Notes under the pieces: generated by a model
What the model was told of the DNA's origin: nothing
The model's input: the letters and a program-made list of their open reading frames with translations, nothing else
The model's database searches: none
Source: a virus
Lineage: Duplodnaviria > Heunggongvirae > Uroviricota > Caudoviricetes
Reading direction: 5' to 3' (one strand)
Length of the DNA stretch: 10,763 nt
Virus record (IMG/VR): IMGVR_UViG_2526164690_000049
Position numbers and translations under genes: made by a program
Shown here: in pieces, positions 5,349 to 10,763 of the stretch
Position numbering within the stretch: the first letter of the stretch is position 1
Layout: each line of letters opens with the position of its first letter

Positions 5349-7166
5349 TTAATTTTTGCTATCGTCATTAGTGACCGATACACATGATGGCATCCAGTCT
5401 TCTGATTCCTCCGTCAGTGTCACGTTTGAACGCAAACCGTGCTTCGTTTTCCGTTTCATATACTCCCTGCCATATTCCGCCATTGCCCCCGGCATATCTT
5501 TACCGAAGCGCGTCAGTGTTACAGGTTTACCGAATCCGTGTGCCCTCATATATGCCAGATAGGCGTGATAAAGATACCTGCGCGGACTGAACGGAATAAT
5601 TTCGGCATTACCCACTAACAGACCATCACACATTACCGACGACATGAGATAGCCGCAGAAGTCCACCAGCGAATCGCCCTCGCGTTTTATCACCAGAGCT
5701 TCTTCTGATTTCTGCTGCTCATACAGCAGGCGTTTAGCTGCGTCCTGGTCAGAAAAACGAGTAAGCAGGTGGCGAATCACAACCGCCAGCTCTCCTTCTA
5801 TTTTTTCTGCCAGCATGGGGTCGCGTTCGTTTTCCGGTACAACCTCCGAAAAATTGAATATCACCCGACGACGTGAAATCCCCCCGCTGCGGTCACTGAA
5901 TGACATGGCGTTATTGTTCACCGCCAACACTACCGCCTGAATGCGTGTTGAGTAGGGGGCTTTATGCTTCGGGTCGATTGCCACCTTGTCACCGCCTGTA
6001 ATGGCCTTAATTCCTGCGCCATCACCAGCGTAACGGGTCATATCCGGCATGATAATCAGCGAAAAGCCAACCACTAACGCGCGTTCCCTGGCATCTTCCA
6101 GCGCCTTCATGCTTGCCGATACCGTGTTGGCCTTACCCGCCAGCATGGTGCAAATCTCCGCCATCACGCTTTTACCACTTCCCCCTGGACCTGTTACCTC
6201 AATGAATAACTGCCAGTCGTACCGGTTCGCCAGCACCATGAATAATGCAGCCAGTACGCGATCCGCCTTGCGGTCATTCTCAGCCACCGAACGGCGTAAC
6301 CACTTCCAGAAATTCGGCGCATGTGTTGCCAGCGTTTCCCCCTCTGCTGGTGGGCTGAAAGGTAATTCACTGGCAATTAACAACCAGTCGTTTTTGTTAT
6401 GCTCCCGAAAATCGCCTGTCCGGGTATCAAAAACACCGTTACTGAATCCAATCAGGTTACGGGCTGTATTCCCCATTACAGGCAAACTTAACTTCATGGT
6501 ATCGACCGCCGATTTAATGGCGTTCTGCGAATAGCTGATCTCCGCATCAATGAAAATCTGTGCCATAGCTCGCTGTAATTCTTTATCCTGTACTGGCTCC
6601 CATACAACGCCGTTGTAATAGTGAACAGTGTCAGAGTCAGCATGAATCGCCAGTTCACCGCCATAATGTGCCAGGAGAACTTCGCCGCGTTGACTTGCTC
6701 CCATCTGGTTAAGCGCCAGTGATGAAGCGTTATCGTCTTTTACCCGCTCTTTTTTCTTTACAGGCAGTTCAACTACATTTTTCTTTTCCGTCAGCTCTCC
6801 CCGCTCACGTTCCAGATATTCGCGCCAGTTCTCCCGTTTCTGGCTGTGCATTCCTTCAGGGTAATAATCAGCATCCCTGACACCTGCCGCTGCCAGTTTC
6901 TGCCCGATGGTATTAACAAGCCCCGAACGCAATAACCCCGCCTGATAGAGACGCACGCGATAGCGTCCGTCCGGTACGATTTGCAGGTTGTCCAGTTCGG
7001 CAAGTTGTTGCTCTCCAAGCCAGACAGGTGGCACGCTGTCGCCAGCCAGTCGCCCGTCCTGTTCCTGCCACTGCTTCGCATGTGCCCACGCATCACTACC
7101 CGCAAAAATGATGACTTCCGTCATTTTGTCACGTGGCTGGTGTTTTAAATTTGGCGCTTTTTTCAT
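5349..7166 (-). CDS. P4-family primase/helicase-like replication initiator (D5-N-like region plus SF3-type NTPase with Walker A)
   Basis: 605 aa from ATG 7166-7164, which overlaps the TGA (7165-7163) of the upstream ORF, with GGAGAGAG upstream; the ORF track starts it at GTG 7181. Walker A VTGPGGSGKS; later acidic IIMPD segment that may be Walker B. Overall architecture matches phage/plasmid primase P4-type C-terminal proteins. No canonical primase active-site motif recognised by eye. Confidence 0.85.
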   Translation of the reverse strand: MKKAPNLKHQPRDKMTEVIIFAGSDAWAHAKQWQEQDGRLAGDSVPPVWLGEQQLAELDNLQIVPDGRYRVRLYQAGLLRSGLVNTIGQKLAAAGVRDADYYPEGMHSQKRENWREYLERERGELTEKKNVVELPVKKKERVKDDNASSLALNQMGASQRGEVLLAHYGGELAIHADSDTVHYYNGVVWEPVQDKELQRAMAQIFIDAEISYSQNAIKSAVDTMKLSLPVMGNTARNLIGFSNGVFDTRTGDFREHNKNDWLLIASELPFSPPAEGETLATHAPNFWKWLRRSVAENDRKADRVLAALFMVLANRYDWQLFIEVTGPGGSGKSVMAEICTMLAGKANTVSASMKALEDARERALVVGFSLIIMPDMTRYAGDGAGIKAITGGDKVAIDPKHKAPYSTRIQAVVLAVNNNAMSFSDRSGGISRRRVIFNFSEVVPENERDPMLAEKIEGELAVVIRHLLTRFSDQDAAKRLLYEQQKSEEALVIKREGDSLVDFCGYLMSSVMCDGLLVGNAEIIPFSPRRYLYHAYLAYMRAHGFGKPVTLTRFGKDMPGAMAEYGREYMKRKTKHGLRSNVTLTEESEDWMPSCVSVTNDDSKN

Positions 7167-7462
7167 TTCTGCTCTCTCCACGCGGCAATCATGTTTTTCA
7201 GTTCCTGTAGTTTTTTATCAACATCCATACATGGCACATGGTTGTTTCTGGAAGGCGGGATTTCCCGCCTGAATCTGCTAATAAAGATCTCCACGTTCAG
7301 CGAACTATGAAATGAATAGCCATCACGAATAAAATACACACGGTCAAACATCAGTTCTTTTACCGTTACTCTGTTACCGTTCTTATCCAGATAAATAGCG
7401 CCGGGGATAATTTTTGGGTGTGCATAACCGCTGGCAGTCAAGCCAGATAAATATGTTCTCAT
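7163..7462 (-). CDS. Hypothetical protein, 99 aa, translationally coupled to the primase/helicase gene
   Basis: ATG 7462-7460 lies 6 nt after the stop of the upstream ORF; its stop overlaps the primase ATG. No family recognised. Confidence 0.55.
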   Translation of the reverse strand: MRTYLSGLTASGYAHPKIIPGAIYLDKNGNRVTVKELMFDRVYFIRDGYSFHSSLNVEIFISRFRREIPPSRNNHVPCMDVDKKLQELKNMIAAWREQK

Positions 7463-7468
7463 GATTAT

Positions 7469-7789
7469 TTATCCCCGATTTGAATCAGTATTCGCTTTCT
7501 TTATGGCATTTAATGCATCTGTGGCATTTTCAATGGTGCACCGTAACGAAATATCAAACTGCCCAAGCATTGCCAGTAACAAGCCAATATTACCCATGTC
7601 AATGCGCATAGCCTTTTCGTCATATTCCTCATTTTCTGACGCATGCCACATCAGGCTACCAATTGACGAAACAGCCATTGATATATTGTCAGTAGCCCCA
7701 TCCGCAGCGGAATAAACCTTTTTAGCAATATCATGCTCACAGTTAAAATGCGGATTAATCAGGTACTGGTAATTGGTCATGTCAGGCAT
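7469..7789 (-). CDS. Hypothetical protein, 106 aa
   Basis: ATG 7789-7787 preceded by AGGGGGTG (strong SD); overlaps the stop of the upstream ORF by 8 nt. No family recognised. Confidence 0.55.
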   Translation of the reverse strand: MPDMTNYQYLINPHFNCEHDIAKKVYSAADGATDNISMAVSSIGSLMWHASENEEYDEKAMRIDMGNIGLLLAMLGQFDISLRCTIENATDALNAIKKANTDSNRG

Positions 7790-7985
7790 GGAACACCCCC
7801 TGACGAATACGGGCGGCGAATACCATCACGCAGCCATCAGGAGATTGCTGACGCGCTTCCTGTTCGCTGGTGGCCTCGATGGTAATCACGCGCGGTTGTG
7901 CCGTGCTCAGGGCGATAAAACGCCAGATGTATTTATTCAGGTTGTGCGAGTCCCGCCCTTGCGGGTGTATGGTATGATTTCTCAT
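7782..7985 (-). CDS. Hypothetical protein, 67 aa (alternative TTG start at 8072 would give 96 aa)
   Basis: ATG 7985-7983 has GAGG 5 nt upstream. The track's longer form begins at a TTG with no SD. First gene of the operon downstream of the divergent control region. Confidence 0.45.
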   Translation of the reverse strand: MRNHTIHPQGRDSHNLNKYIWRFIALSTAQPRVITIEATSEQEARQQSPDGCVMVFAARIRQGVFHA

Positions 7986-8083
7986 AGCTGCCTCGATACT
8001 CTCGTTATCGTTGGTGGTTAGACGCCCCGTATGTGTTTCCGGCACTGCGGGGCGTTGCTCTTTGTATTTCAAAAATCATTTCG

Positions 8084-8161
8084 GTGTGTTTCATGTTATG
8101 AGCGCATGAAACACACGCCAAGGCTTTTTGTATTTCTTTTTTTGTGTATACTGAAACACAC
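8084..8161. promoter_or_regulatory. Divergent control region: perfect 12-bp inverted-repeat operator plus a third half-site overlapping a -10-like element
   Basis: GTGTGTTTCATG (8084-8095) and CATGAAACACAC (8105-8116) are exact reverse complements separated by 9 bp. TGAAACACAC recurs at 8152-8161, overlapping TATACT (8147-8152), 31 bp upstream of the ATG at 8183. A weaker copy GTGTTTCC lies at 8033-8040. Confidence 0.5.
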
Positions 8162-8182
8162 CGATGATTAGGAGTTTCAGAA

Positions 8183-8488
8183 ATGGCAACAGCTAACAAA
8201 AACGCAAAATCACAACTGACAACTGTCAGAGTCCCACTAGATGTTATGCAAGGGATGGAATCCGTTAAGCTGGACGGCGAAAGCAATGCCGGATTTATCG
8301 TAACCGCCATGCGCGGAGAAATAGCCCGCCGCCAAGCAGAAGGCAGCGGAGAAAATCCCCTTGTGTCGTCACTGGATGCCCTGGCTAAGGTCGAACAAAT
8401 CGGCATCAAAGCAGCGGAAGAAATCGGGCAGCTTGTCACCGTTGCACGCGAAGAACTCCAGCGTCGCAAGACCAAAGAACCAGAGTAA
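8183..8488 (+). CDS. Putative small DNA-binding regulator (possible ribbon-helix-helix type), 101 aa, divergent from the replication operon
   Basis: AGGAG 8 nt upstream of the ATG. The N-terminal segment TVRVPLDVMQGMESVKLDGESNAGFIVTAMRGEIARR has a strand / helix / Gly turn / helix layout compatible with an RHH fold; this is a visual guess only. The antisense 308-aa minus-strand ORF looks like a low-complexity artefact. Confidence 0.55.
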   Translation: MATANKNAKSQLTTVRVPLDVMQGMESVKLDGESNAGFIVTAMRGEIARRQAEGSGENPLVSSLDALAKVEQIGIKAAEEIGQLVTVAREELQRRKTKEPE

Positions 8489-8530
8489 TCACCATCAGCG
8501 CCGTGGTGTAAGGTATTACGGCGCATTGCT

Positions 8531-8719
8531 ATGCAGGACAACACAATGACCGATAAAGAATTGACCAAAACATTATCACCGGCACGGAAAAGACGGCGCA
8601 GAAAGATAGAGCATGAATCAGAAAGATTCGCGCCATGTGCTTTTGCCCTTGAGCAATTCCTTAAAGAGTACAGGGAAAAGCGCTCATTGCAGGTATGGCA
8701 ACGAACTGAACCAGACTGA
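8531..8719 (+). CDS. Hypothetical small basic protein, 62 aa (or 57 aa from ATG 8546)
   Basis: Follows the 101-aa gene on the same strand. Contains the basic run ARKRRRRK. SD is weak; CAGGAC precedes the second ATG. A plus-strand terminator lies downstream. Confidence 0.4.
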   Translation: MQDNTMTDKELTKTLSPARKRRRRKIEHESERFAPCAFALEQFLKEYREKRSLQVWQRTEPD

Positions 8720-8810
8720 TAGCATTGCCCACCAGCCTGATAGCGACTATCATTTCCGTTCTTATGTTTGGGATCACACACACAAACGGCGCAGCGGGTT
8801 ATCTGTTCAG

Positions 8811-8842
8811 AAAGGCGGCTCCATTTCGGGACCGCTTTTTTT
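8811..8842 (+). terminator. Rho-independent terminator of the plus-strand gene pair
   Basis: GGCGGCTCC (8814-8822) and GGGACCGC (8828-8835) form a stem with one mismatch around loop ATTTC, followed by TTTTTTT (8836-8842). Confidence 0.6.
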
Positions 8843-8983
8843 ATTCCTGAAAAACCCCAATTTTGTTGTTTTTCAGTTTCACCAGGGCGAACGAATCCCC
8901 GCCCACGTTCGGGCGCATATTCAATCTTCATGGTTATATCTCTGTATTAGTGGATGTGTGGCGGCTGCGTGCCGCCAGCGTGA

Positions 8984-9172
8984 TTAATGAACTGCCTTGC
9001 AGCTATCCTTCCAGGCCAGAACCTCGGATAAAGACCAGCCAACGGAACGACCGCCAAGTTTACGACGTGATGGGAATTGTCCGGCCTTTTCCAGGCGGTA
9101 GCGGCATGAGCGGCTAAGGCCTGTTAGCTTTTCGCATTCTTTTTCACGTATAAACCGATCAGTGCTTAACAC
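8984..9172 (-). CDS. alpA: AlpA-family transcriptional regulator (Xis-like small HTH protein)
   Basis: 62 aa. KLTGLSRSCRYRLEKAGQFPSRRKLGGRSVGWSLSEVLAWK matches the AlpA-family signature as I remember it (TGLSRST.YR...G.FP....LG.R.VGW...EV..W). Starts at GTG 9172-9170 with AAGGGGG 6 nt upstream. Sits downstream of int on the same strand. Confidence 0.85.
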   Translation of the reverse strand: MLSTDRFIREKECEKLTGLSRSCRYRLEKAGQFPSRRKLGGRSVGWSLSEVLAWKDSCKAVH

Positions 9173-9331
9173 TATTGCCCCCTTTCGTTTCTTAAAGAGT
9201 TATTTCGTGTTCTATTGCGTTGGGATGTGTCTGATTGTGTCAGGATGATTCAGAGTTGGCAAATGTTGAGGCTGTATGGTTTACAGAAAGAGGAATAATC
9301 AGGATAAAATCATTTAAATTCATGTTAATAC

Positions 9332-9363
9332 AAAGGCATAAAATATTGTTTAATGCCTTTTTT
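9332..9363. terminator. Terminator-like hairpin in the int-alpA intergenic region (candidate int terminator, possibly bidirectional)
   Basis: AAAGGCAT (9332-9339) and ATGCCTTT (9353-9360) are perfect complements around a 13-nt AT-rich loop. T-run through 9363 on the plus strand; UUUGUAUU follows on the minus strand. Confidence 0.4.
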
Positions 9364-9454
9364 CTCGCTATTTAAAGAGTGATTCGCTAGTGTATAAAAA
9401 ACCAGTAACACATTAAAAATCAGCTACTTATAAATCTGTACACTTTTTCGCCTC

Positions 9455-9489
9455 TTGTTCGTAGTTGTTCCGCATTGTTGCTCATTGTT
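9455..9489. repeat. Four 10-bp-phased TTGTT repeats just 3' of the integrase gene
   Basis: TTGTT at 9455-9459, 9465-9469, 9475-9479 and 9485-9489 with exact 10-bp spacing. Same core, opposite orientation, as the GAACAA repeats at 3699-3724. A perfect 16-bp palindrome CAGTATGCGCATACTG follows at 9515-9530. Confidence 0.45.
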
Positions 9490-9545
9490 GCACGCTGTAT
9501 CTGTTCGCATATCCAGTATGCGCATACTGAAAAAATACGAAAAAA

Positions 9546-10763
9546 TTATTTTCTTCTGGCTACTGGTAGCGTGGTTACGTTTTCATGTGTTCCCGCCAGT
9601 ATCCCTAACCGCTCCATCCACATATCCAGCGCATTGCGTTTAGCATCCAGATAACGGGAATGATTATAAACTCGCTGCATTCCTGGCATCTGGTGGCCTG
9701 TAAGCTGCTCCACGACATGCGGATCAACGCCTAAATCGTTCAGCATGGTTGTAAAGGTGCGCCGGATGTCATGCAGTGACCAGTGAGGGTGATTAAGCCT
9801 CCTGTGCGCTAATCTTCCATACTGCGATACGCTGGCCTCCTGTTTCACTGCCCCCAGCAATAAGCCCGTGTGCCTGTTCTGCTCCACCAGCTGCGTGACG
9901 AACGGCAGGATCGCTTCCGGTATGGGCCGGAATATTGCGACCTTCGTTTTGCTGTGCTCCTTCGGAACGGTCCATAGCATTTCCGTAAAATCCCACTCCC
10001 CGATCTCCGATAACCTCAGTTCTACCGTTCTGGCTCCGAAGACAATCAGGAGGCGGATTAACGCGACGTAGTAAGGGGAAAATATTTTTTTATCCAGCGC
10101 CTGCAATAACTCGCCCAGTTCTTTGGTGCTTAAGACACGTTCGCTTATATCCGGTTTTTTCCCAACGTCCGCCACGTTCAGATCGTCCAGAACGTTGCTG
10201 ATTGCATAGCGCCGCCTACGGCAGAACTTAAGCGCCTGTTTGCACGCCTGTAGCACGAATCCGGCAGTAACAGGCGTTCGCTTTGCCACCTGGTCAAAAC
10301 AGGCCAGCCAGTGCCGTAGCTCGCATTTATCCAGCGGCATAGCACCAATCTGCTGTATTACGTGATTATTAAGTCGCCTTTTCAGGGCGATATAATCCAC
10401 GCGGTTTTCCTTTACGTAATACTCAAGCCAGTAGGTGAGCGCATCGCCAACCGTTACGGGCTTTAACGCTTCCTGTACGGTGTAATTCATCTCATGACGT
10501 GGATTTTTCCCCTCAGCCAGCCATGTGCGACACTGTGCGGCTTTTTCCCTGGCTGCTTTCAGGCTCAGATCAGGATAACTTCCCAGCTTAATGCGTTCGG
10601 GTCGTGTCTCCCTTCCCGTTCCGGCCCTGTATGTGAAATACCAGGTCAATTTCCCTGATGTTAAATATTTCACGCTCAGGTTTCCGCCATCACTATAAAA
10701 CGTGTTTTTCTCCGCTGGCTTACCATGAAGTTTCCTTAGCAAGGTATCGCTCAGTTTGTTCAT
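9546..10763 (-). CDS. int: Tyrosine site-specific integrase, P4-type
   Basis: 405-aa complete ORF; the ATG is the final three bases of the window and the stop TAA is at 9548-9546. The N-terminal region has the look of a P4-type arm-binding domain. The C-terminus carries catalytic-type motifs HDIRRT and the probable tyrosine nucleophile in RVYNHSRY. Confidence 0.93.
   Translation of the reverse strand: MNKLSDTLLRKLHGKPAEKNTFYSDGGNLSVKYLTSGKLTWYFTYRAGTGRETRPERIKLGSYPDLSLKAAREKAAQCRTWLAEGKNPRHEMNYTVQEALKPVTVGDALTYWLEYYVKENRVDYIALKRRLNNHVIQQIGAMPLDKCELRHWLACFDQVAKRTPVTAGFVLQACKQALKFCRRRRYAISNVLDDLNVADVGKKPDISERVLSTKELGELLQALDKKIFSPYYVALIRLLIVFGARTVELRLSEIGEWDFTEMLWTVPKEHSKTKVAIFRPIPEAILPFVTQLVEQNRHTGLLLGAVKQEASVSQYGRLAHRRLNHPHWSLHDIRRTFTTMLNDLGVDPHVVEQLTGHQMPGMQRVYNHSRYLDAKRNALDMWMERLGILAGTHENVTTLPVARRK

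Follow-up and report, generated by a model that had tools for sequence, protein, structure and literature searches.

The present analysis concerns a stretch of viral DNA of 10,763 nucleotides (IMG/VR record IMGVR_UViG_2526164690_000049, Caudoviricetes; the whole stretch is referred to below as the window) and, within it, a run of four closely packed genes that are read on the minus strand from position 7985 to 5349. In the order of their reading, these genes encode a short Icd-like protein, an uncharacterised protein of 106 amino acids (aa) named ORF106 (ORF, open reading frame), a protein containing the DUF4222 domain (ORF99) and a replication protein, Rep. The coordinates of these genes and of the other features discussed here are given in Table 1. 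We consider it likely that this locus represents the early/replication operon of a phage-inducible chromosomal island (PICI) of enterobacteria, belonging to the capsid-forming kind (cf-PICI) and close to EcCIEDL933, in which a translationally coupled chain of genes leads to a Rep protein of the P4-alpha type that carries no primase and would be primed by the host.

Within the window, positions 5200-9300 are 100% identical to islands in the genomes of E. coli O157:H7, O111 and O103, the identity for the whole window being 99.9%, and the carriers of the near-identical sequence are the chromosomes of Shiga-toxigenic E. coli. In PV15-279 the identical island (NZ_AP018488) is about 15 kb in length and interrupts tqsA and, according to the Prokaryotic Genome Annotation Pipeline (PGAP), all of its genes except one are on the same strand. 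The annotated order is int, alpA, YlcI/YnfO (on the opposite strand), Icd-like, hypothetical, DUF4222, "DNA primase family protein", hypothetical, ssb and perC, and then major capsid, prohead protease, portal, head closure, connector, HNH, TerS and TerL. The island thus holds the gene set by which Gram-negative PICIs and cf-PICIs are defined (definition from 10.1101/2022.09.08.507074), viz. int, alpA and a rep-ori within about 15 kb, the absence of lysis or tail genes, and a capsid/terminase set of its own. The prototype of the cf-PICIs is EcCIEDL933 (bioRxiv 10.1101/2022.09.08.507074), and the accessions of the capsid and other head proteins are common to this island and that of the window. 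As judged from these sequences, the window is a cf-PICI of Shiga-toxigenic E. coli and a mosaic sibling of EcCIEDL933, since its packaging module is as in EcCIEDL933 but the integrase site and the replication cassette are different. The induction by a helper via AlpA, and the transfer in its own capsids with helper tails, have been demonstrated for EcCIEDL933 itself rather than for its mosaic sibling in the window (10.1101/2022.09.08.507074). The comparison of EcCIEDL933 (L028:20330-34761; handles of this kind denote the loci compared) with the window also shows the exchange of modules between cf-PICIs. In one E. coli PICI (L004:7822-7889), the Rfam int-alpA RNA motif RF02996 is located between int and alpA; this motif was not detected in the int-alpA spacer of the window.

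Table 1. Positions in the window of the genes and other features of the replication operon and its surroundings
Feature	Position	Strand	Description
icd-like gene (gene 1)	7782..7985	-	67 aa from ATG; coding sequence of 204 nucleotides (nt), same as PGAP call
ORF106 (gene 2)	7469..7789	-	uncharacterised; variable slot
ORF99 (gene 3)	7163..7462	-	DUF4222 (RgdR-family), 99 aa
Rep (gene 4)	5349..7166	-	605 aa from ATG
RepN, N-terminal alpha/beta module of Rep, aa 1-132	6771..7166	-	in place of zinc ribbon and Toprim primase
Walker A GPGGSGKS, aa 326-333 of Rep (superfamily 3, SF3, core)	6168..6191	-	identical in P4 alpha
C-terminal origin-binding domain of Rep, aa 497-593	5388..5678	-	match to PDB 1ka8, E 1e-24
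replication origin	5114..5334	both orientations	8 exact and 2 one-mismatch copies of the P4 type-I iteron TGTTCACC
orf81, probable continuation of unit	4816..5061	-	after the 287-bp origin
ssb, probable continuation of unit	4409..4819	-	C-terminal DDIPF tail
perC, probable continuation of unit	4126..4398	-	PGAP start 4398
structured 5' leader	7994..8055	-	hairpin 1, 8055-8022; TCTAACCA, 8022-8015; hairpin 2, 8010-7994
sigma-70-like promoter candidate	8093..8121	-	TTGGCG (8121-8116), 17-nt spacer, TAACAT (8098-8093); read from sequence
three operator-like repeat copies (GGTGTGTTTCA)	8084..8162		GGTGTGTTTCAG, 8162-8151; GTGTGTTTCATG, 8116-8105; inverted CATGAAACACAC, 8095-8084
divergent YlcI/YnfO-family gene	8183..8488	+	101 aa; NCBIfam NF041551, E 1.6e-17

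The four genes follow each other with scarcely any intervening sequence. The icd-like gene and ORF106 overlap by 8 nt (7782-7789), ORF106, whose stop codon ends at 7469, is separated from the start of ORF99 at 7462 by a 6-nt spacer (7463-7468), and an ATGA (7163-7166) is common to ORF99 and rep. A Shine-Dalgarno-like motif is present 5-9 nt 5' of each of the four starts, and a terminator scan of the coding strand revealed no terminator-like site between 5349 and 8072. For two of the genes an alternative start is available, viz. a TTG at 8072, from which the first protein would be 96 aa long, and a GTG at 7181, from which Rep would be 610 aa long. However, the 96-aa form (ORF96) was ruled out as the first gene, because 1-nt indels between alleles upstream of the ATG at 7985 destroy its frame; due to this, the 67-aa form (ORF67) is interpreted as the real first gene and the stretch preceding it as a conserved RNA leader. 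The start of Rep is placed at the ATG at 7166, as the N-terminal sequence MKxAPNLK is a conserved feature of the family. In alleles that are 94-97% identical, none of the four ORFs changes in length. The ratio of nonsynonymous to synonymous substitutions (dN/dS) is 0.06-0.15 for rep and 0.13-0.21 for ORF106 (versus the window). The values of the DUF4222 and icd-like genes, about 0.2-1, are above those of rep and indicate that the small genes evolve faster.

The conservation of this arrangement was examined in 16 loci of other Enterobacterales, for whose retrieval the Icd-like protein served as anchor and among which are Escherichia ruysiae, Cedecea, Citrobacter, Pantoea, Pectobacterium, Klebsiella, Rahnella, Enterobacter, Superficieibacter, Rosenbergiella, Intestinirhabdus, Acerihabitans, Brenneria and Dickeya, and additionally in E. 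coli alleles and in the Klebsiella cf-PICI "vB_KppS-Ant". Across 19 loci from about 14 genera, between 2 and 7 small genes stand between icd and the replicase, and all junctions from icd to rep lie within -17 to +9 nt. The junction between icd and the next gene is an 8-nt overlap in 15 of these 19 loci, regardless of what the next gene is, and the same architecture is present in the experimentally studied islands EcCICFT073 and EcCIEDL933. As the content of the interval is mosaic while its chaining is conserved, the locus is a real conserved polycistron. The reading of this DNA that was made earlier from its letters alone (the sequence-only reading) had proposed a compact polycistron with stop/start coupling, and this proposal is supported; its small ORFs are likewise intact and conserved in homologues, with dN/dS values mostly below 1. 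Of the overlaps that it listed, those at 7782-7789 and 7163-7166 are real, but the "6 nt at 7462-7469" is the spacer described above, and of its two versions of the first gene, ORF67 and ORF96, only the shorter one stands.

The limit of four genes, which was also part of the sequence-only reading, appears to be too narrow on both sides, as the unit has a leader and a promoter-like region of its own upstream and, past the origin, the tight chaining of genes resumes, orf81 and ssb overlapping by 4 nt (4816-4819) and perC starting 10 nt after ssb. No terminator-like site was predicted between rep and orf81/ssb/perC in the region scanned, and the transcription unit probably extends through the origin into these three genes.

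Based on this anatomy and its conservation, we infer that ribosomes which end translation of icd would restart on ORF106 (via the 8-nt overlap), then on the DUF4222 gene (across the 6-nt gap) and finally on rep (at the ATGA), i.e. by termination-reinitiation. Since ribosomes would pass down the chain in this manner, control exerted at the first cistron would set the output of the whole chain. The same arrangement can also be interpreted differently, in that the overlaps reflect mere genome compaction and the genes, while co-transcribed, are translated independently from their own ribosome-binding sites, in which case the coupling is without regulatory meaning. The Shine-Dalgarno-like motif at each start, the 6-nt gap at one of the junctions and the variable number of small genes (2 to 7) that different islands carry between icd and rep accord with this explanation, as does the fact that overlaps of 4 and 8 nt are the commonest classes in compact bacterial and phage genomes. 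However, independent translation does not account well for the retention of the junction pattern (-17 to +9 nt in 19 loci, with the 8-nt icd overlap in 15) when the genes themselves change, nor for a structured leader that ends at the Shine-Dalgarno sequence of the first cistron only. Further, in P1 the translation of icd is reportedly required for the expression of the downstream ant genes (Heinrich et al. 1994). We therefore regard independent translation as a somewhat unlikely explanation of the locus.

Of the small proteins, all three of which were listed as unknown in the sequence-only reading, two are members of described families and only ORF106 is uncharacterised. ORF67 matches the NCBIfam Icd-like family (NF033153) with 69.6 bits against a cut-off of 25 (E 1.7e-19), and its core, FIWRFIALS...EQEARQQSP.GCVMVFAAR, is conserved across genera and constitutes the most conserved part of the whole cassette. 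The Icd protein of P1 binds FtsZ and blocks division (PMC11897509), the inhibition of the FtsZ ring having been shown only for P1 Icd. By its family membership only, the Icd-like protein of the window would hold back cell division during replication of the island. In three of the loci (L004:4119-4484, L005:4070-4435 and L012) the Icd-like protein is 121 aa long and consists of two tandem Icd-like repeats, in contrast to the 67-aa single-domain form. ORF106 corresponds to phrog_15327, which has no assigned function, and it shows no match in Pfam, PADLOC or PDB. A word-indexed protein search, which returned close relatives only, retrieved 19 of them, nearly all from E. coli, and in Superficieibacter a homologue of 40% identity is encoded in this slot, likewise with an 8-nt overlap. 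ORF106 would in our interpretation fill a variable accessory slot.

The third small protein, ORF99, contains the Pfam domain DUF4222 (PF13973; 61.1 bits versus a gathering score of 27, E 7.6e-17). A member of this family, RgdR (ECs1581), activates LEE1 in E. coli O157 without specific DNA binding, and the RGD tripeptide at its residues 20-22 is important for the activation of LEE, the locus of enterocyte effacement (PMC3378721). The predicted fold of ORF99, which rests on a shallow alignment (the search having given close relatives only), resembles the Tudor domains that bind RNA polymerase, and this small Tudor/SH3-like protein would act on the transcription machinery of the host or on Rep. 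In tblastn searches of bona fide phages, DUF4222 was found in none and the Icd-like protein only in the Klebsiella cf-PICI; the small proteins also matched none of the PADLOC models of defence systems. Homology of the DUF4222 protein or ORF106 to the P4 proteins Cnr, epsilon or orf151 was considered and rejected, as none was detected.

Two other roles for the small proteins have to be weighed at this point. In P4, cnr, which controls the copy number of this element (PMC8628076), lies directly upstream of alpha. The DUF4222 gene occupies the same position and shares an ATGA with rep in the window, L003, L004, L005, CFT073, EDL933 and L012, whatever the class of helicase, which could mean that its product is a dedicated regulator of Rep, i.e. 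a counterpart of Cnr that binds the initiator to set the copy number. However, it shows no sequence similarity to Cnr/DUF5375, islands of Klebsiella and Enterobacter with the same Rep lack DUF4222, RgdR acts in trans on LEE1 and motility, outside any rep plasmid assay (PMC3378721), and the predicted fold resembles Tudor domains that bind RNA polymerase; a Cnr-like role is, hence, unlikely. The second possibility is that the small proteins are directed at the helper, as anti-repressors or as interference proteins like P4 epsilon, instead of being factors of replication or host physiology. The equivalent interval of P4 does encode epsilon and orf151, and the interval is a mosaic, fast-evolving slot of the kind seen for arms-race genes. 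It is difficult to reconcile with this proposal that no ORF in the 16 loci is similar to epsilon, orf151 or cnr, all of which were in the reference set, that PADLOC gave no match, and that the Icd-like and DUF4222 proteins are conserved across islands using different helpers. We consider a helper-directed role to be doubtful.

The last gene of the chain encodes Rep. The Pfam domains identified in Rep are D5_N (residues 162-291, E 1.3e-13), DUF5906/SF3 ATPase (325-433, E 8.1e-11) and Pox_D5 (496-591), and from residue 113 to its end the protein aligns with residues 290-771 of P4 alpha with 48% identity (E 2e-163). The PDB entry matched by its C-terminal domain, 1ka8, is the "putative P4-specific DNA primase" C-terminal domain, i.e. 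the crystallised origin-binding domain of P4 alpha. For TIGR01613 (phage/plasmid primase, P4 family, C-terminal domain) the score of Rep, 97.4 bits (E 6.8e-28), is below the cut-off of 108.7. Directly 3' of rep is a 287-bp interval of 67% A+T, which holds iterons of the sequence TGTTCACC. In the whole window there are nine exact copies of TGTTCACC versus 0.46 expected (about 20-fold), a number reached in none of 200 shuffles, and in the P4 record repeats of this very sequence bear the annotation "ori type 1". The origin of the window is placed where P4 has crr, just past the initiator gene. Based on the 48% identity to alpha, the match to 1ka8 and the copies of TGTTCACC, the helicase, the origin-binding domain and the iterons are all of the P4 type, and Rep is, by these sequence criteria, an initiator of the P4-alpha type that has the helicase and origin-binding domains but no primase domain. 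The C-terminal domain would bind the TGTTCACC iterons, which are its putative binding sites, and the SF3 ATPase would unwind the A+T-rich origin.

The part of Rep that precedes the helicase differs from that of P4 alpha. Residues 1-160 of Rep gave no match to any Pfam primase profile, even at E<=10, and contain no cysteine, whereas the same Pfam library, as a positive control, detected Zn_Ribbon_Prim and Toprim_3 in P4 alpha (residues 1-289) and in the allele of Enterobacter hormaechei (L019, 784 aa). In place of these domains there is an alpha/beta module, which we refer to as RepN and which gave no Pfam match of any kind at this threshold. Sequence homology of RepN to the P4-type primase domains was considered and rejected, since the profile-profile comparison was not significant. 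A Foldseek search of PDB with RepN gave nothing significant, its fold similarity to the Toprim of the DnaG type being weak only. When 1.84 billion representative proteins were searched exhaustively with a profile, 136 members of the RepN family were identified. The module is N-terminal in all 26 full-length members that were examined and, with the Rep of the window included (27 proteins), it is fused to D5_N/SF3 in 14, to DUF927 in 11, and to a VapE-like and an AAA_25/RepA partner in one each. A4, G23, A26 and L55 are the only residues that do not vary among these 27 diverse members, and none of the conserved columns is acidic. As the active site of Toprim requires an invariant Glu and a DxD (in the P4 type, EGYATA and DxD) and no acidic position is conserved in RepN, this family should be non-catalytic.

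The relationship between the two kinds of N-terminus is clarified by L019, whose helicase part is 82% identical to that of the window, with the divergence starting just before the common motif ALNQMGASQRGE, which indicates a clean swap of the N-terminal module. In this locus (L019:5539-7893), and also in L013, L016, L022 and L024, a complete P4-type primase (Zn_Ribbon_Prim and Toprim_3) precedes the same SF3 module or DUF927 helicases, and it follows from such sequences that the N-terminal and helicase modules are shuffled independently. In some database proteins (P0004, P0005, P0054, P0065 and P0099) part of RepN is fused to the SSB, PerC, DUF4222 or capsid-protein domain; these are probably internal deletions in decaying copies of islands in sequenced genomes. 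One of them, the natural DUF4222-Rep fusion P0065, was considered as a stand-in for a complex of the two proteins but not used, as it is a deletion chimera without strand 1 of RepN.

With these results, the observations in the sequence-only reading of a helicase-type Walker A and of the lack of a canonical primase motif in the N-terminal part of Rep are both confirmed, the domain search having found D5_N and SF3 and no primase catalytic domain within 5349-7166, and its suggestion that the priming function resides elsewhere gains support from an SF3 core to which no such domain is attached; its label "primase/helicase" should be dropped. That Rep is nevertheless a bifunctional primase-helicase, correctly annotated as a "DNA primase family protein", with RepN being a highly diverged Toprim that uses unconventional catalytic residues, is very improbable, as RepN has neither a zinc ribbon nor a cysteine, shows no Toprim match at a threshold where the positive controls are found, has no conserved Glu or DxD in its 27 diverse members, is at 130 aa too small for the N-terminal subdomain of the DnaG-type polymerase core, and gives nothing significant in the Foldseek and profile comparisons.

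The question which then arises is from where the primers come. The PGAP annotation of the island contains no other primase. The "pri-rep" protein of EcCICFT073 has the same RepN (66-68% identity), and the pri-rep and ori of this island maintain a plasmid in E. coli, the island itself replicating under AlpA overexpression with no need of a helper phage (PMC6092414). Because Rep is without a primase and the rep and ori of EcCICFT073 are self-sufficient in E. coli, the primers would have to be supplied by the host, most likely by DnaG. The recruitment of DnaG could run through RepN or through the single-stranded-DNA-binding protein (SSB) of the island with its acidic DDIPF tail.

Upstream of the first gene are several features that may control the operon. 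Transcription would start at a promoter of its own, about 100 nt upstream of the first gene, and/or result from AlpA-driven read-through. At the aligned position of the -35 element of the promoter candidate, TTGACG is present in the alleles L006, L008 and CFT073, and the -35 and -10 elements are bracketed by the operator-like repeats, which are putative operators for the divergent YlcI/YnfO protein. The N-terminus of this protein looks ribbon-helix-helix-like. Its gene is in the same divergent place beside icd in L003-L009, CFT073 and most of L012-L027, and in 10 loci the sequence of the repeat changes with the YlcI/YnfO allele but its placement is kept, a co-variation that resembles the specificity pairs of repressors and operators. 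In the literature no paper was found on the function of YlcI/YnfO, and the master repressor of Gram-negative PICIs has been described as unclear (PMC6092414). The YlcI/YnfO protein is a candidate regulator of the operon promoter and, more generally, a candidate repressor of Gram-negative PICIs.

The transcript from this promoter would carry a structured leader of about 100 nt. Directly after its hairpin 1 is the near-invariant TCTAACCA (TCT[A/G/T]ACCA), and the 3' arm of hairpin 2 adjoins the GAGG Shine-Dalgarno sequence of icd (7994-7991). For 18 leaders from Enterobacterales, RNAalifold predicts 17 base pairs, 10 of which, distributed over both hairpins, show compensatory changes. In hairpin 1, 87.5% of the positions are paired versus 25-44% when the partners are slid, the observed covariation score is reached by none of 500 shuffles, and both hairpins are present in the minimum-free-energy fold of the window (z = -2.1). 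The leader has no match in Rfam. Its structure would gate the translation of icd. An antisense RNA of the C4/CI type upstream of icd was also considered and ruled out: Rfam gave no match to C4/CI RNA in the window at the gathering score, nor at E<=5 in 7700-9600, and none was present in four other PICIs, though C4 and isrK were found in P4. In the same region, a 308-aa ORF rich in Ser, Cys and Arg (8005-8931, minus strand) is antisense to ylcI, and a 57-aa ORF is present at 8546-8719 on the plus strand. PGAP annotates the counterpart of the former as a 247-aa protein in EDL933; in the identical island it is given as a pseudogene, and in other cases the 57-aa ORF on the other strand is annotated. 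The patterns of substitution did not decide between the 247-aa hypothetical protein and ylcI with the 57-aa ORF. In 10 other loci, ORFs of 280-410 aa in frame with icd were treated as shadow ORFs, as the parts upstream of icd show no conservation at the protein level and run antisense to ylcI, and the 308-aa ORF antisense to ylcI is probably a shadow ORF as well.

Several observations weigh against the interpretation of the locus presented here. The presence of a Shine-Dalgarno motif of its own at every gene means that the coupling may be only partial. The promoter candidate is below the threshold of a generic promoter scan, and transcription could equally well stem from AlpA-driven read-through from upstream. 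When ORF67 was compared by tblastn with the phage collection, only the Klebsiella cf-PICI was matched and not P1, from whose Icd it is too distant. ORF99 has P20-G21-A22 at residues 20-22 and not the RGD that is present in RgdR of EDL933 and in the homologue from CFT073, and its core is only 35-46% identical to other DUF4222 alleles, inclusive of those of the RGD type; thus, the data for RgdR may not transfer to it. Lastly, DUF4222 is absent from the Klebsiella loci L002 and L017, which carry RepN, and is present beside the full-primase alleles L024 and L025. This distribution makes a dedicated partnership of DUF4222 and RepN unlikely, and an obligate one is ruled out by the Klebsiella islands that have RepN without DUF4222.

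In terms of novelty, the class of the element, its P4-type replicon and the two protein families, Icd-like and RgdR, were already known, and the locus is a variant of known satellite biology, due to which the results are useful for researchers working on satellites but leave the picture of what such elements are unchanged. The literature that was found contains no description of a primase-less class of "pri-rep" alleles with a portable non-catalytic N-terminal domain, of the icd leader as a conserved structured RNA, or of YlcI alleles that co-vary with operator-like repeats. Enterobacterales very commonly harbour PICIs and P4-like satellites, which move genes for virulence and defence and whose "pri-rep" genes are treated as primases in routine annotation and in discussion. 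No primase signature was found in the initiators of the allele class described here, to which the replicases of EcCICFT073 and EcCIEDL933, the two E. coli PICIs used in experiments, also belong; as the priming must come from the host or the helper, there is a change in what an account of the replication of these elements has to explain. RepN, being a small and portable domain, is the obvious subject for testing. Further, RgdR, which was known only as a virulence regulator of O157, is placed by these results in its native setting, viz. as a cistron that would be translationally tied to the initiator of a satellite, and the leader hairpins and the YlcI-operator pairs are candidates for how the operon stays silent. 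It is conceivable, and we put this forward only tentatively, that RepN is an undescribed adaptor by which satellite initiators recruit host priming (DnaG, SSB) and, separately, that YlcI/YnfO, the repeats and the leader together form the repression switch of Gram-negative PICIs.

The known system closest to the locus is that of the satellite phage P4, whose left operon has the order vis - cI region/"cI ORF" - epsilon - orf151 - cnr - alpha - crr. In both cases a regulator of the AlpA/Vis type is located upstream, the first ORF has an Icd-like core, and small genes, the initiator and, directly downstream of it, the iterons follow. The first ORF of the window and the "cI ORF" of P4 show weak similarity (E 0.026) and are grouped together by PHROG, Rep shares its 48% identity with alpha over the helicase and origin-binding domains, and the iteron TGTTCACC is identical. 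However, unlike P4, the Rep of the window lacks the primase domain, the C4/CI antisense RNA and isrK, both of which Rfam finds in P4, are missing, none of the small genes is related to epsilon, orf151 or cnr, and where P4 has sid, psu and delta the island has genes for capsid and terminase. In its first cistron the locus resembles the immI operon of P1 (c4 RNA - icd - ant1/2), where a short ORF of the Icd family is likewise overlapped by the next gene and control at the ribosome-binding site of icd governs the genes behind it. The two differ in that no c4-type antisense RNA is detectable in the window and in that its downstream genes are replicative, and not for an antirepressor. A further comparison, with the human mitochondrial protein Twinkle (vs gp4 of T7), concerns a possible mode of working and not family membership, as the helicase of Twinkle is of the DnaB/RecA-type SF4 and that of the window is SF3, with homology between RepN and Toprim being unproven.

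The closest relatives are the replication cassettes of EcCICFT073 and EcCIEDL933 ("pri-rep" + ori; Fillol-Salom 2018; Alqurainy 2022 preprint), with which the window has in common the succession of ylcI, icd-like gene, small genes, DUF4222, RepN-Rep, ori, ssb and perC and, in the case of EcCIEDL933, also the packaging module, the capsid protein having the same accession. The differences lie in the modules that fill this framework. EcCIEDL933 (OI-51/CP-933C), which is integrated between roxA and phoQ, in contrast to tqsA for the island of the window, has a DUF927 helicase, three other small genes and RgdR, and EcCICFT073 has another SF3 allele with iterons of the CTGTCTACC type, whereas the window carries the P4-alpha/TGTTCACC allele of Rep, ORF106 in the place of their small genes, and a different DUF4222 allele without RGD. 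The latter protein, ORF99, is like RgdR (ECs1581 from OI-51 of O157, i.e. EcCIEDL933) in its DUF4222 domain, its length of 99 aa and its ATGA overlap onto rep, but it has PGA in the place of RGD and different residues at most of the mapped positions that are functionally important.

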